Positions 1 through 16,852 of a stretch of DNA of 17,418 bases are shown here, in pieces (the stretch's first letter is position 1; each line of letters begins with the position of its first letter). The stretch lies in the IMG/VR virus record IMGVR_UViG_643692022_000009; one strand, 5' to 3'. The stretch is from a virus. Lineage: Duplodnaviria; Heunggongvirae; Uroviricota; Caudoviricetes. The notes beneath the pieces were generated by a model, which did not search any database, had not been told where the DNA came from, and was given only the letters and a program-made list of their open reading frames with translations. The position numbers and the translations under genes were made by a program.

Positions 1-792
1 ATGCCAATAAATGGAGTCAGTGCTGCGATGCGCGAACGGGTATCGCAGCAATTAAAAGAAATAGAACGTCGCTATGGCGTGAAAGTGCTGTACGCCTGCG
101 AATCGGGGAGTCGCGGTTGGGGATTTGCCTCTCCCGACAGCGACTACGATGTACGATTTTTGTATGTTCACCCGCTGGAATGGTATCTGCGGGTGGAGGC
201 GCCGCGCGATGTTATTGAGTTGCCTATTGACGACGAGTTAGATGTTTCAGGCTGGGAGTGGCGCAAGGCGCTGGGATTACTGAAAGGAGCGAATCCGACG
301 CTGATAGAATGGCTGGATTCTCCGGTGGTCTATCAACAAGATGAAGAAACGATAACGCCGCTTAAGGCAATGGTGCCGAAGTGGTTTTCTCCGCTGCGTG
401 CGCGTTGGCATTATTATTCGATGGCGCGGAAAAACTTTCGCGGTTATTTGCAGGGCGACGTAGTTCGGCTGAAAAAATACTTTTACGTGCTGCGACCACT
501 ACTGGCTGTGCGTTGGGTTGAAGCGGGAAAAGGCGTACCGCCAATGCGCTTTGCCGAGTTACTGGCGGGAAGCGAGCTTGATGCACCGTTACGTGCAGAA
601 ATAGACGAACTGCTGGAACGTAAACAGCGCGCGGGAGAAGCGGAATATGGTCCGCGCCGTCCTTTGTTACATGCGTTTATTCGTGTGGAACTGGCGCGTG
701 GGGAAATTCCACCAGTGTTACCGGACAGCAGGGACGGAGATGCCAGGGAACTGGATGGGTTGTTGTATCAAACAGTGATACGCCGGGCGTGA
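1..792 (+). CDS. Pol-beta superfamily nucleotidyltransferase (263 aa); N-terminal NTase fold plus C-terminal helical domain. The ORF begins exactly at the window edge, so the true start may lie upstream.
   Basis: Translation contains the hG[GS]-x(9-13)-Dh[DE]h signature of Pol-beta-type nucleotidyltransferases: 'LYACESGSRGWGFASPDSDYDVRF'. Uninterrupted 263-codon ORF with typical enterobacterial GC content. Confidence 0.6.
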   Translation: MPINGVSAAMRERVSQQLKEIERRYGVKVLYACESGSRGWGFASPDSDYDVRFLYVHPLEWYLRVEAPRDVIELPIDDELDVSGWEWRKALGLLKGANPTLIEWLDSPVVYQQDEETITPLKAMVPKWFSPLRARWHYYSMARKNFRGYLQGDVVRLKKYFYVLRPLLAVRWVEAGKGVPPMRFAELLAGSELDAPLRAEIDELLERKQRAGEAEYGPRRPLLHAFIRVELARGEIPPVLPDSRDGDARELDGLLYQTVIRRA

Positions 793-821: not shown

Positions 822-1550
822 TTACCGAAGAGAATATTTGAGCTGTTTAAATTTGCTGCAGAGTGTGTTTTTTATGCTGAAACCTGGAACCCAGTGGAGA
901 GCTGTGTTCCAGGGACGAGGTGAACCGTGAAAACATACAATTTTTGCATCCGATGGCAATTCTCCGTTTGCTTTACCATCGTGTAAGTCAGGATTAAAGC
1001 CTATCATTTTAGGCGTCGCTATATTCGCTTTGTAACTGATAATTTGTCCTGGAAAAATATCCTGCCATCTTTCAGCGTCATGACATACTCTGCCGATAAA
1101 TCCCTGATCCCCATGATATGGCGGCTTTCTGGTTGAATTTATTTCAGTTTCAGGCGATCTCATAAACTCTTCCCAGACAAGTTTTTTGGCGTCCGCAGGA
1201 ATGAACATTATTCCAGTCGCAGGAGCAGCATTGGAACCATGCTGCGAGAAGTCGTTCAGTAATGTTACTTTTTTCATTTTAGTAAACTGTGTAATATCAC
1301 CGACGATTACAGTATCAATATCAATATAAAGTATATCTTCATTCCCGATAACAGGATGTTCGGGATTAAATAGCTCTAATTTTGCCCACCATCCTGGCCA
1401 ATTATACAGTAATGGAGTGGTTTGAACCCCTTTGATTTCTGAAGCATCCGTCATGCAAATGGAATTATACCCATCCAGCTGCTGGTGAAGCCATTGTGCA
1501 TGTTTAATAGTGAAATCCTTACTTTGTCTGAGAACTGAGACAATAAACAT
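822..1550 (-). CDS. GT8-family-like (GT-A fold) glycosyltransferase, 242 aa, encoded in an AT-rich block
   Basis: Translation has a DxD motif in GT8-like context ('ILYIDIDTVIVGDI') and a C-terminal 'CFHGSPRPW' resembling the H-x-x-G-x-x-KPW motif of GT8 enzymes (LgtC, WaaJ, glycogenin type). GC content is clearly lower than in the neighbouring tail genes. The ATG is preceded by AGGGA on the minus strand. Confidence 0.5.
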   Translation of the reverse strand: MFIVSVLRQSKDFTIKHAQWLHQQLDGYNSICMTDASEIKGVQTTPLLYNWPGWWAKLELFNPEHPVIGNEDILYIDIDTVIVGDITQFTKMKKVTLLNDFSQHGSNAAPATGIMFIPADAKKLVWEEFMRSPETEINSTRKPPYHGDQGFIGRVCHDAERWQDIFPGQIISYKANIATPKMIGFNPDLHDGKANGELPSDAKIVCFHGSPRPWNTALHWVPGFSIKNTLCSKFKQLKYSLR

Positions 1551-1591
1551 GTAATTTCCCTGTAGCGATTAGCAAAATATATAAGTAGTGA

Positions 1592-1619
1592 ACTATATTT
1601 GATGTAATTTACAATGCAA
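1592..1619 (-). promoter_or_regulatory. Candidate sigma70 promoter for the glycosyltransferase gene (-35 TTGCAT, 16-nt spacer, -10 TATAGT on the minus strand)
   Basis: On the minus strand: TTGCAT (plus 1614-1619), 16 nt, TATAGT (plus 1592-1597), about 40 nt upstream of the ATG at 1550, inside an AT-rich intergenic region. Confidence 0.35.
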
Positions 1620-1730
1620 TAGTTATTGTATTTAAATTCTTCTATATTCACTCAGTGGATGGTTAATATGGAAATATAATTACTGTGAATATTTATAAGC
1701 ATGTGCTTTGTTTGTGATGGAATATACAGC

Positions 1731-1758
1731 CTGATTAAAGCCGGGCTTGAAGCCCGGC
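1731..1758 (-). terminator. Candidate intrinsic terminator at the end of the tail operon (8-bp stem GCCGGGCT / AGCCCGGC, followed on the minus strand by UUUAAU)
   Basis: Perfect inverted repeat at 1740-1747 and 1751-1758, located 6 nt downstream of the stop of the 151-aa ORF (1764). The U-tract is short and interrupted. Confidence 0.35.
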
Positions 1759-1763
1759 GTAGT

Positions 1764-6677: not shown

Positions 6678-6737
6678 GAGGGTATTTTCGCCCTGAACGG
6701 GCTGTGGCGATATTAAAGCGATTTAGAAAACTGATTG

Positions 6738-6770
6738 ATTAAAAAGAGAAAACCCGCCATCAGGCGGGTT
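6738..6770 (-). terminator. Strong intrinsic terminator between spike gene V and wedge gene W
   Basis: Minus-strand transcript reads AACCCGCC-UGAU-GGCGGGUU (perfect 8-bp GC-rich stem at plus 6751-6758 and 6763-6770) followed directly by UUCUCUUUUUAAUC. The hairpin starts 5 nt after the gpV stop (6776). Confidence 0.6.
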
Positions 6771-6775
6771 AAACG

Positions 6776-7477
6776 TCAGTGTGTATGGTGGTTGGAGTTG
6801 CCACCGCTGTCCTGCAATGCGCCGCTGGCCTGAACGTTGCCGATCACGTTGACATTGCCAGTTATCGTGGCGGCGTTACCGATGCCTCCACTTCCTGCCA
6901 TCCCGCCAAGCCAGGTGAGTTTTTTCATTACCGTGACGTTGCCAGTAAAGGTGCTCATGGGCGCATCTACCGTCACTGCTGCCGCTTTAACATCGACCTT
7001 AGTGGCGTCGATGCTGACATCGGTCGCTTTAACATCGACAGTATCGGAAGTCACGATGACCTGTTGGGCTTTAATCTCAACGTTGGGTGATGTCAGGCGG
7101 GTACTGTCGATAACCTCAATCACGATTTTCTCGATACCGCCGTTAATCGTCAGCTGGTGCGTGCTGCGGTCATATTCAAACGCTGCGCCATCAGAAAACT
7201 GGACGTAACGTTTATCGCGCGAGGCCACAGGCGCGGTGTCAACCGTAGAATAAACTGCGCCCAGCACCACGCCATCTTCACCGTTATTGTCCAGCAGAAC
7301 TTCCACTTGCTCGCCCATATCCGGTAGCCAGTAGTCTTTATTGTCCTGGGAATTGCGTTGAAGTACCGCAAGCCAGTTGCTCTTCAGATTGTCACACTCC
7401 GGGAGCGTGACCCGCACCCGAACGCTGGTTTCGTCAATATCGATGATAATCCCCGTTTGCCGGGTTACTCCTTTCAT
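6776..7477 (-). CDS. Baseplate spike / assembly protein V (P2 gpV family), 233 aa, with Gly-rich His-terminated C-terminus
   Basis: Position directly downstream of gpD and sequence character of gpV-family spikes; C-terminus '...GGMAGSGGIGNAATITGN...NSNHHTH' fits a metal-binding apex. AGGAGGAAATATG-type RBS upstream. Confidence 0.75.
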   Translation of the reverse strand: MKGVTRQTGIIIDIDETSVRVRVTLPECDNLKSNWLAVLQRNSQDNKDYWLPDMGEQVEVLLDNNGEDGVVLGAVYSTVDTAPVASRDKRYVQFSDGAAFEYDRSTHQLTINGGIEKIVIEVIDSTRLTSPNVEIKAQQVIVTSDTVDVKATDVSIDATKVDVKAAAVTVDAPMSTFTGNVTVMKKLTWLGGMAGSGGIGNAATITGNVNVIGNVQASGALQDSGGNSNHHTH

Positions 7478-12558: not shown

Positions 12559-12608
12559 TTTGTGTCCTTATTTATTTTGCAAAGTTCGGGGCCGTAGCCC
12601 CGAATAAC

Positions 12609-13133
12609 TTAGCCACCGATGTTATTGCGATAGGTACTTAATTGATCCACACCATTAACCCGGAAAATATTGGCCATATAATCAAGTTCAAGCAGCGTTT
12701 CACCATCAACTACTTGTTTAATATAAGTGCAACCAAAGGCGCTGCTGAATTCCGGGTTTTCATTCTGTTTAAATGTGCCCAGTGGATTCTTTTTAAACAT
12801 CACGGTTAAATGTGTCACTAACGCTAATTGATTCGCTTTCCCCTGGGAGTTATAGCAATCAATACTGGAGCGGCACTGTAATGCCACCGCCTGCCACGGG
12901 TTTGCCGTTTTACGCATGACGTCCTGATAAAAGGAGTTCCATTTAATTTCGCCCTCCAGTTTATCGAAACCTGCCGGGAGTTCGATTTTGCCGACCATAC
13001 CCAGTGCCTTATGCTCTTGCATAATTAAACTGACATCCGGCAATTTAATTTCGGTTGCACGACCTAAAAGGTTATTACCATCGAGATAAATATTGGCGTT
13101 GGTAATACGGTTAATTTGAATTTTTCCAGCCAT
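12609..13133 (-). CDS. Major tail tube protein (P2 gpFII family), 174 aa
   Basis: Size and position immediately downstream of the sheath gene (start overlaps the sheath stop by 1 nt); tube-family sequence character. Confidence 0.85.
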   Translation of the reverse strand: MAGKIQINRITNANIYLDGNNLLGRATEIKLPDVSLIMQEHKALGMVGKIELPAGFDKLEGEIKWNSFYQDVMRKTANPWQAVALQCRSSIDCYNSQGKANQLALVTHLTVMFKKNPLGTFKQNENPEFSSAFGCTYIKQVVDGETLLELDYMANIFRVNGVDQLSTYRNNIGG

Positions 13134-15196: not shown

Positions 15197-15313
15197 ATAG
15201 GGTATCCCTTAATTATCGCTGATTCGTTAACGCTCACTTCGTTATCGTTGAAATGTATTCTGACGTAGTGAAGGTGAAGGATCTTTTAATCTGCTTTAGA
15301 GAAAAAATTGAAT

Positions 15314-15640: not shown

Positions 15641-16246
15641 TTAGTGAAGACAGCTTGCCTGTCCCCAGAGTAAATAGCGGGCGGCGTGTTGATAGAGAAT
15701 CATCTTTGGATAGCGACGATTTTCTCGCCAGTTCGTGGCGCTGCGCCCGGCGTTGACTTGCTCAACATGACCAAACCAGAGAGTGGCATCTAGCCCTTTG
15801 GATACAGCCAGTTTTTTATCCCGATTAACCCATCCCTGACCGCCGTTATAGGCGCTTAGGGTAAACGCCATACGCTGACAATCATTTTTCGCAGAGATGT
15901 TTTTCCACAAATACTGGTCATATTGCACCAGCGCGCGAATCGCCCAGGTTGGGTTATACGGTTTGTTTTCACGCAACTGCGGATACAACTGGCTTACCCA
16001 TGTCGCTGTAGCAGGCATGAATTGCGCCATACCTTGTGCGCCAACGGGGGAACGTACCATTGGCTGCCAGGCGGACTCCTGGTGTAATTGCCCGGCAAAG
16101 TCGGCCACTGGGGCATTCAGTCCCCAGACTTCTCGAGCGGTACGAATTAGTTCGTTTCGCCATGCCAGAGAGGCTCTCGGCGGTTCAGAGGCGTTGAGTG
16201 GGAAAAGAACGAAAATAATCATAGACGCGATATATTTCAGCCACAT
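15641..16246 (-). CDS. SLT-domain lytic transglycosylase (endolysin) with N-terminal signal or SAR-like hydrophobic segment, 201 aa from the ATG at 16246
   Basis: Contains the family-1 lytic transglycosylase motif with catalytic Glu: 'HQESAWQPMVRSPVGAQGMAQFMPATA'. N-terminus 'MWLKYIASMIIFVLFPLNASEPP'. The ORF track extends to 16345, but the ATG at 16244-16246 lies 2 nt after the upstream gene stop and begins the hydrophobic segment. Confidence 0.8.
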   Translation of the reverse strand: MWLKYIASMIIFVLFPLNASEPPRASLAWRNELIRTAREVWGLNAPVADFAGQLHQESAWQPMVRSPVGAQGMAQFMPATATWVSQLYPQLRENKPYNPTWAIRALVQYDQYLWKNISAKNDCQRMAFTLSAYNGGQGWVNRDKKLAVSKGLDATLWFGHVEQVNAGRSATNWRENRRYPKMILYQHAARYLLWGQASCLH

Positions 16247-16536: not shown

Positions 16537-16832
16537 ACGATATCTCCTGATAAATGAGCGTTTAGTGTCGTCAGAACCCGCCAGTGAAGAATGAAAAAAG
16601 CTTTAATAAATAAGTTTAAAAAATAGATTCTCTATAAATGAACATGCCCGCTAATAAATCCACCCGTCAATAAAAGAGCAAAAGGTGACCTGGCGAACAA
16701 GTGCATCATTATGCAGGGGAAAGATGATGGTGGATCGTAGGAATATTCGATAGTTATTTGATTTTTAAAGTTTGTTTAAGAAAGTCAGCGACTGTGAGGG
16801 AAACGATCTTTTTACACTACAAGTAAAAATAA

Positions 16833-16852
16833 TACTGTATGTGTATACAGTA
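16833..16852. promoter_or_regulatory. LexA (SOS) box, TACTGTATGTGTATACAGTA
   Basis: Matches the E. coli LexA consensus TACTGTATATATATACAGTA (CTGT-N8-ACAG) at 18 of 20 positions, differing only at two central, weakly conserved positions. It lies in the divergent AT-rich intergenic region between the Mor-like gene and the lysis/tail operon. Confidence 0.65.

Follow-up and report, generated by a model that had tools for sequence, protein, structure and literature searches.

At the late promoters of phage Mu, the dyad bound by C or Mor overlies the -35 region with its centre at -43.5, and a -10 is recognisable with no -35 present (PMC2582627, PMC4287176). In the RefSeq record of P2 (NC_001895), V-W-J-I-H-G is annotated as one operon, as the preliminary description of the locus studied here had it, and the start of the operon is placed on the first base of V, after the terminator of the O operon and the non-essential orf30. 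That P2 V is leaderless is stated in the RefSeq feature table and was not encountered in the P2 literature searched. With its start on the first base of V, the P2 operon directly sets the precedent of a baseplate operon whose first cistron is leaderless. Lambda cI, Tn1721 tetR, and P2 V are examples of leaderless mRNAs, of which few natural ones in E. coli are known to us. General properties of leaderless mRNAs in E. coli have been described (PMC4965119).

The window, the whole 17,418-nt stretch of DNA analysed here, was found to be 98.6% identical over 1.6 kb across the V-W junction to a chromosomal cluster; among 5,426 complete genomes of E. coli, 195 carry it. In strain S10 (NZ_CP010229), yjbD (plus slipin and nucleotidyltransferase genes) flanks the cluster on one side and lysC on the other. 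The cluster begins with the gene of an activator of the Mor family and genes for a holin, a transglycosylase, and a membrane protein, continues with Gp37, sheath, tube, chaperone, tape measure, U, X, D, and V, and ends with W, J, I, fibre, DUF4376, and a 151-aa protein. Neither the S10 annotation nor Pfam showed any head, replication, or integration genes in the cluster. The gene make-up is that of an R-type tailocin, and a literature search returned no reports of particles or killing for the element. The Salmonella copy (STM4198-4219) has been called an ancestral, well-conserved “BcepMu” prophage (PMC7302871). The “tailocin” of a paper on ST131 was considered as a description of the element and set aside, as it is a different, P2/R2-like prophage. 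The W protein was closest to W of the BcepMu-type transposable phages (BcepMu gp49, phiE255, PhiKM, and KP12). P2, taken as the layout reference in the preliminary description, does not serve as such, as the module is of the BcepMu type with a Mor/C regulator. The features of the locus are listed in Table 1.

Table 1. Positions of genes, observed sequence elements, and predicted sites in the window (relative positions are counted from the A of the W ATG).
Feature	Position	Strand	Basis or remark
Gene W, gp25-like baseplate wedge, 119 aa	6318..6677	-	ORF list; Pfam GPW_gp25; S10 RefSeq annotation
Predicted transcription start, A of W ATG	6677	-	Geometry: hexamer ends 7 nt upstream, C at -1, A at +1
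-10-like hexamer GAAAAT	6689..6684	-	-12..-7; 6 nt before W ATG
G+C-rich spacer, 19 nt	6708..6690	-	Length invariant across relatives, sequence variable
Putative late-promoter box ATCAATCAGTTTTCTAAATCGCTTTAATATC, 31 bp	6739..6709	-	-62..-32; conservation and PWM
Dyad TAAATC/GCTTTA	6725..6714	-	Centred at -42.5, i.e. 42.5 bp 5' of predicted start
T-tract TTCTCTTTTT	6750..6741	-	Sequence
Putative terminator hairpin AACCCGCC-TGAT-GGCGGGTT	6770..6751	-	Sequence and energy
V stop TGA	6778..6776	-	
Gene V, baseplate spike, 233 aa	6776..7477	-	ORF list; Pfam Phage_base_V E = 8e-8
CAGAAT hexamer of second box	15262..15257	-	Same 19-nt spacing
Second putative box TTCAATTTTTTCTCTAAAGCAGATTAAAAGA	15312..15282	-	Between lysis genes and Gp37; PWM 26.5 bits vs shuffle maximum 20.6
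Mor/C-family transcription activator, 114 aa	17074..17418	+	Pfam Mor E = 4e-38

The gap between V, which is also annotated as such in RefSeq at the 98.6%-identical E. coli S10 locus, and W spans 6678..6775 (98 nt). An 8-bp GC-rich perfect hairpin with a T-tract had been reported 5 nt past the V stop, and its stem, loop, tail, and distances were recovered as reported. On the minus strand, which carries the genes here, the order is TGA-cgttt-AACCCGCC-TGAT-GGCGGGTT-TTCTCTTTTT, followed by aATCAATCAG, which puts 5 nt between the V stop and the hairpin on the coding strand. The arms (6770..6763 and 6758..6751) form 8 perfect pairs, 6 G-C and 2 A-U, around a loop of 4 nt. Counted from the G-C core of the stem, the T-tract reads UUUUCUCUUUUU; 8 T occur in the 10 nt after the stem and 10 U in 12 overall, abutting the G-C stem, and 63 nt separate the end of the tract from the W ATG. 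The free-energy check proposed earlier gave a computed -14.8 kcal/mol for the hairpin. A d'Aubenton-Carafa-type score was positive (+12 to +34). On the plus strand the hairpin is followed by TAAACG and the T-tract is absent, which makes the candidate terminator one-directional.

A loose terminator pattern was not enriched in the window, with 23 found against 20.8 expected, and a stringent definition was therefore used instead (8 or more perfect pairs, 6 or more G-C, a loop of 3-8, and 7 or more T in 10). Under this definition the V/W hairpin was the sole site in the window when both strands were searched, at a chance rate of 0.003 sites per window in 300 dinucleotide shuffles. No Rfam family matched the gap; a sub-threshold match to Hrs1 (E = 0.37), whose 18.5 bits fell short of the gathering score of 56.4, was attributed to chance. 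The 98-nt gap of the window held no ORF of note and no moron-type extra gene. By its sequence, the hairpin with its T-tract has every feature of a strong Rho-independent terminator. Another strong hairpin (12604..12585, -16.4 kcal/mol), which has no good T-tract, lies 3' of the tube gene.

The W-to-fibre genes had been proposed to have an activator-dependent promoter of their own, and both comparative and within-genome evidence for such a promoter was found in the 63 nt after the putative terminator. We aligned 24 W-upstream regions on the ATG, drawn from gamma- and beta-proteobacteria and from true phages, with W proteins 38-99% identical. The layout of box, 19 nt, hexamer, and ATG was kept in all 24, one of them being shifted by 1 nt. 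All sequences carried TTTCCTAA-N6-TTTAAWAKC at -54..-32, and the enterics and Chromobacterium had TCAAY at -61..-57 in addition. The dyad of the box is TAAATCGCTTTA in the window and TTAAAGCGCTTTAA in Salmonella and Pandoraea. Further downstream, xAxxAT was located at -12..-7 in 23 of the 24 sequences and at -13..-8 in the remaining one, and the conserved columns (column conservation over 23 sequences) were G-14, A-11, A-8, T-7, and C-1. A PWM built from 15 relatives, with the window left out, scored the W box at 31.2 bits compared to a shuffle maximum of 20.6, and just two sites stood out in the window, one before W and one before Gp37.

The block before W, hereafter P_W, has a recognisable -10 at a fixed spacing and no -35 hexamer. 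A scan for the sigma-70 consensus returned no promoter in 6678..6775, as expected for a promoter without a -35. The conserved block is very probably a late promoter, and 6709..6739 is the inferred binding site of a Mor/C-family activator. The hexamers match TATAAT weakly (GAAAAT, CACGAT, CACCAT). A TAATAT inside the box is a possible alternative -10, with which the leader would be about 26 nt long; in Chromobacterium and at the Gp37 site this motif has decayed to TAAAAG. Covariation in a spacer hairpin, GCCC-GTTCA-GGGC, gave a Fisher p of 0.007 in one shuffle design and 0.99 in another and is not claimed. In several lineages the hexamer stands between the arms of an inverted repeat (Fisher p about 0.001); the repeat is absent in several others and moves in register by 1-2 nt, and given this absence and these shifts it was not adopted as an RNA structure.

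The second box, before Gp37, was conserved in E. coli S10 (CATAAT) and Salmonella (CAAAAT), and its core was almost the same as that of the boxes which precede the holin gene and gp32 in BcepMu. Its start is predicted near 15250, with a 54-nt leader that carries a Shine-Dalgarno before Gp37. A composite model, consisting of the core box, exactly 19 nt, and then xAxxAT, matched twice in the window, before Gp37 and W (0.125 expected), and four times in the 36.7-kb BcepMu genome (0.025 expected), in the latter always on the late-gene strand. The three strong BcepMu matches precede the holin gene gp21, gp32 (the equivalent of Mu I), and W. With a matrix made from W sites only, the BcepMu genome also gave an out-of-place high match inside gp29, which was removed by the composite model with spacer and hexamer. 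In Chromobacterium, where J is separated from W, a further box occurs before J, about 110 nt away from its start codon. A third box before the holin gene of the window (about 16785..16760), conserved in Salmonella, was not counted, as its dyad has an extra base and its spacing to the -10 is not conserved.

A Mor/C-family gene was found in every box-bearing case open to inspection. The homologue in the window shares 44-49% identity with the C/Mor homologues of PhiKM, BcepMu, phiE255, and KP12, and its product is the presumed activator of both boxes. From its conservation, P_W appears to be the third late promoter of the BcepMu-type tail family, ancestral to it and the counterpart of Mu PP. Several parts of the earlier reading are changed by these results. 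A first unit running from lysis through V probably does not hold with a second promoter copy between the lysis genes and Gp37, and there are probably three transcription units instead: the lysis genes, Gp37 to V, and W to the end. The V/W break is not peculiar to this element either, since the promoter stands before W in all 24 relatives. The split of the module at V/W is real, but it is defined by the promoter, which is also present in phages that have no terminator, rather than by the terminator. Regulated read-through into W, the other route that had been offered, is not needed, and nothing was found in its support. As had also been suggested, the break may set the stoichiometry of wedge and fibre.

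The W start codon was ATG in all 24 sequences. For W, the best anti-Shine-Dalgarno duplex, poorly spaced at about 10 nt, came to -3.7 kcal/mol, compared to -11.3 for V and -10.8 for J. The Shine-Dalgarno of W was the poorest among the ATG-start genes of the window, and the median of the relatives was about -3. Since the promoter geometry places the start on the ATG and W has no Shine-Dalgarno, a leaderless W mRNA is predicted. We give a somewhat better than even chance to transcription starting on the A of the W ATG with a leaderless W mRNA. Elsewhere, this box with its hexamer is separated from the start codon by 54 nt (Gp37) to about 110 nt (Chromobacterium J), which argues for a promoter and not a translation signal. 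The inverted repeat that brackets the hexamer would, if it acts in RNA, argue for a start further upstream. Extended to the whole BcepMu-type family, phages and derived headless Enterobacteriaceae clusters alike, the proposal would be that W is translated only from a leaderless mRNA made at a Mor/C-dependent promoter, and that the terminator stops untranslatable read-through and occlusion; this stands at about an even chance. At least one other late promoter, that before the Mu-I-like gene of BcepMu, may likewise give a leaderless mRNA. Published TSS data for the locus were sought under the identifiers STM4203-4213 and in the SalCom compendium, and nothing usable was found.

The junction differed strongly among relatives. 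The region is carried by the 195 E. coli genomes at full length and at least 96.5% identity. In five E. coli alleles (96.5-100% identity), the hairpin, T-tract, and downstream block were unchanged, and substitutions were confined to the 5 nt before the hairpin and to the spacer. The V-W gap is 98 nt with the terminator in the window and E. coli. In two Superficieibacter species it is 97 and 99 nt; stem core and T-tract are as in E. coli, the loop differs, and the stem has one more closing pair (ACCCGCCG-CAA-CGGCGGGT followed by TTTCTTTTTT); the V proteins of these species are only about 75% identical and the terminator is still kept. In Phytobacter (176 nt), a REP-like insert interrupts the hairpin and the T-tract persists. 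The Dryocola gap (258 nt) holds an ERIC-like insert and a new terminator-like hairpin (AACCCT...AGGGTTTTTCTT), the original hairpin being broken. Salmonella has a gap of 3,325 nt with gtrABC and a small ORF between direct REP-like repeats; these gtr operons are known to be cargo gained by horizontal transfer (PMC3688519). The E. coli and Salmonella sequences become homologous again exactly one base past the T-tract. Pandoraea and Chromobacterium sphagni (about 350-550 nt) have one small ORF. The 3-3.5 kb that separate V from W and W from J in Chromobacterium were rejected as cargo, as Pfam identified permuted tail genes (gpI-like and fibre). In the true phages BcepMu, PhiKM, KP12, and phiE255, the gap is about 53 nt and the terminator is absent, so the terminator is not essential to the design. 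On this comparison the terminator is a lineage-specific addition of enterobacterial headless elements (E. coli and Superficieibacter) and not part of the ancestral design.

Three other explanations of the junction were weighed. The late genes could form a single operon in which the hairpin is a leaky terminator or attenuator, or a stabiliser of the 3' end or of processing, with W-J-I-fibre expressed chiefly by read-through and the conserved block having some other role. True BcepMu-type phages have no V-W terminator, which implies read-through into W there, and the hairpin after the tube gene, with its lack of a good T-tract, suggests that RNA stability can be a function of hairpins in this cluster. 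The V/W hairpin, however, has a long T-tract directly at its G-C stem, an internal W AUG would be poorly used with no Shine-Dalgarno before W in any relative, and the block recurs before other late operons at an exact spacing to the -10-like hexamer, which leaves a single operon quite unlikely. The terminator may instead be a relic of a past insertion with no selected role: a moron since lost could have left its 3' end behind, or illegitimate recombination could have brought in a generic hairpin. This would fit the high plasticity of the junction, where gtrABC, REP-like and ERIC-like inserts, and small ORFs occur in relatives, and the terminator-free ancestral state of the phages. A relic is nevertheless unlikely: with the hairpin 5 nt past the V stop and the T-tract one base before the box, no residual cargo sequence is left, the structure is intact in the five E. 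coli alleles inspected and in two Superficieibacter species despite the divergence of their V, and Dryocola, with the original hairpin broken, has another terminator-like hairpin.

In the third explanation, the conserved block and the hairpins would act in RNA as a translation-initiation device for W, and the actual promoter, with TAATAT as its -10, would be situated within the box or upstream of it. T4 gene 25 serves as a comparison for a translation device at a gene without a Shine-Dalgarno. The arms that bracket the hexamer differ by lineage (AGGG/CCCT, AGGC/GCCT, GGGAC/GTCCC, GCGGC/GCCGC, GGGGGC/GCCCCC, and CCCTG/CAGGG), with the Fisher p given above, and TAATAT is a fair -10 in the enterics and BcepMu. 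Against this stand the relatives in which the bracket is missing or out of register, the decay of TAATAT in Chromobacterium and at the Gp37 site compared to a downstream hexamer that keeps A-11 and T-7 everywhere, and the nature of the box, which is a DNA dyad (as seen in Salmonella and Pandoraea) that recurs far from start codons. We regard an RNA device as very improbable.

The best explanation overall, which we consider likely, is a Rho-independent terminator that abuts a Mor/C-type late promoter P_W, most likely with a leaderless W. The sequence features, their conservation and register, and the repetition of the block before other late operons were observed directly. From these we infer termination, dependence on Mor, the position of the start, and leaderless translation. 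The terminator would end the late transcript of Gp37, sheath, tube, tape measure, U, X, D, and V, and would adjoin the upstream edge of an activator-dependent P_W made up of the 31-bp box with its dyad about 42.5 bp upstream, no -35, the 19-bp spacer, and GAAAAT. Transcription of W-J-I-fibre-chaperone would then begin at P_W, with the A of the W ATG as the most likely first base, and the W mRNA would be translated without a leader. P_W would be the older part, shared by the whole BcepMu-type tail family, and the terminator would have been added in the headless lineage of E. coli and Superficieibacter. There it may keep upstream transcription out of P_W, prevent read-through RNA with an internal, poorly translated W AUG without a Shine-Dalgarno, and provide a protected 3' end for the V transcript.

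With expression of W-J-I-fibre independent of read-through, the V/W junction would tolerate insertions. Such an organisation would account for both the division of the cluster and the frequent foreign DNA at V/W, and would explain how gtrABC, a phase-variable O-antigen operon, can sit inside a tail cluster without polar effects. It also yields a testable transcription map of a widespread, little-studied tail-only element (195 of 5,426 E. coli genomes; ancestral in S. Typhimurium), consisting of a LexA box, a Mor-type activator, two putative Mor-type late promoters, and one internal terminator, and it identifies a candidate late-promoter consensus for the BcepMu phage family. For tailocin engineering, the V/W gap would be a safe insertion site, and a leader added at the W start may alter expression. 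If the prediction for W is true, it would be a new natural leaderless mRNA in E. coli and, together with P2 V, would mean that baseplate operons of contractile tails recurrently open with a leaderless cistron.

Compared to known systems, the intrinsic terminator and the Mor/C-type late promoter would both be of known kinds, and the predicted leaderless W is a testable extra. The V/W hairpin shares with canonical E. coli Rho-independent terminators the G+C-rich stem of 6-8 bp, the tetraloop, the adjoining U-rich tract, the position just 3' of a stop codon, and an A-rich 5' flank able to pair with the U-tract; no difference in sequence was seen. Like morons and lysogenic-conversion cassettes at operon boundaries, the Salmonella copy holds the gtr family IV operon STM4204-4206 at V/W, whereas the gap of the window is gene-free and has only the terminator. 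With R-type tailocins (R-pyocin, BceTMilo, and others) the element shares tail and lysis genes with a regulator and the lack of head, replication, and integration genes, and its fixed chromosomal site at yjbD-lysC and its LexA box are tailocin-like as well.

The Mu promoters Plys, PI, and PP share with the putative promoters described here an activator of the Mor/C family and a -10 without a -35 hexamer, and with the start as predicted the dyad would overlap the -35 region here as it does in Mu. In both systems several copies head the lysis, head, and tail late operons (PMC2582627, PMC4287176), and the BcepMu boxes before holin, gp32, and W mirror Mu Plys, PI, and PP. The box differs from that of Mu in its sequence, with the core TAAAGC-GCTTTAAWAKC, and in its dyad centre, which lies at about -42.5 relative to the predicted start instead of -43.5. 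The tail promoter stands before the gp25-like gene here and before gene P in Mu, the start is predicted on the ATG, and in the E. coli element a terminator precedes the promoter. The P2 V operon has in common with the locus that an activator-dependent promoter (P_V) heads a baseplate operon with a start annotated as leaderless, and that it follows the Rho-independent terminator of the previous operon; P2 also has an insertion there, orf30. The activator of P_V is the zinc-finger protein Ogr, with its site annotated 42-69 bp upstream of the start. The P2 baseplate operon begins with V whereas the one described here begins with W, and the genes from sheath and tube to D, which follow the V operon in P2, precede it here.

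Transcription from the second copy of the late-promoter box (a 31-bp dyad block, a 19-nt spacer and a -10-like hexamer, the inferred site of a Mor/C-family activator) is predicted from its sequence to start near 15250 and to yield a unit reaching from Gp37 to the baseplate spike gene V. This copy follows immediately on the stop codon of the final gene in the lysis cassette, and there is no terminator upstream of it. The repeat around the hexamer of the baseplate wedge gene W (Fisher p ~0.001) has counterparts in other lineages with the arms AGGC/GCCT, GGGAC/GTCCC, GCGGC/GCCGC, GGGGGC/GCCCCC, and CCCTG/CAGGG. It is missing from some relatives, and its register is variable. In BcepMu, the late-promoter model places the transcription start of gp32 at ~18861-18862, on an in-frame ATG located 12 nt 3' of the annotated start (18850), and the predicted -10 hexamer, GATGAT, contains the annotated ATG. 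Under this model, the annotated start of gp32 may be wrong, and the gp32 mRNA may be leaderless as well.

Features in the window and in related loci
Feature	Locus	Position	Details
RlaP-type nucleotidyltransferase gene	window	1..792	
242-aa ORF	window	822..1550	- strand; between RlaP-type gene and 151-aa ORF
Hairpin GCCGGGC-TTCAA-GCCCGGC, then TTTAAT	window	1740..1758	just 3' of 151-aa ORF
Inverted repeat AGGG...CCCT	window	6678..6694	around -10-like hexamer, just 5' of W ATG
Strong hairpin TTCGGGGC-TAC-GCCCCGAA	window	12585..12604	tube-chaperone gene gap
Late-promoter box, second copy	window	15282..15312	before Gp37; hexamer 15257..15262
LexA (SOS) box, near-consensus, TACTGTATACACATACAGTA	window	16833..16852	between Mor and holin genes
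REP-like hairpin GGCCCGGTAAGCGCAGAAGCGCCACCGGGC, ~35 nt, direct copies	Salmonella Infantis SARB27 (L001)	12720..12770 and 15870..15915	
Late-promoter model prediction	BcepMu (L033)	18812..18865	before gp32

The hairpin in the tube-chaperone gap reaches -16.4 kcal/mol including flanks and is followed downstream by CTTTGC only; it may act as an RNA-stability or partial-termination element behind the abundant sheath and tube genes. The T-tract of the hairpin behind the 151-aa ORF is weak, and this hairpin is likely the end of the unit that begins with W. The neighboring 242-aa ORF had no Pfam match and is flanked by an A+T-rich stretch (1552..1763). Since the E. coli S10 interval at this position comprises only 14 nt, the region is variable cargo at the edge of the element.

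Tail gene order was permuted in Chromobacterium (L011-L014, L017-L019), reading V-fibre-x-I-W-J or W-I-fibre-x-J. Because a box copy stands at the head of each displaced block, the late-promoter box appears to mark cassettes exchangeable by recombination. In Salmonella Infantis SARB27, the REP-like copies lie on both sides of a gtrABC insertion at the V-W junction and may have served as its recombination substrate. A 6.6 kb contig labelled "MAG: Bacillota bacterium" (JAEZCC010000043.1) matched the E. coli element at ~99% identity, with no difference in the V-W gap, and is probably a mis-binned enterobacterial contig.

Two further blocks conserved in Salmonella occur between the Mor and holin genes, at ~16760..16785 and 16589..16619. 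One of them, TTCTTAAACAAACTTTAAAAATC, is box-like, with an extra base in its dyad and non-conserved downstream spacing. The LexA box in the same region is conserved in Salmonella as TACTGTATATATATACAGT and is overlapped by a promoter-like site on the - strand (TTTACA-16-TACAGT). This arrangement suggests that the tail cluster would be inducible by DNA damage, as tailocins are.
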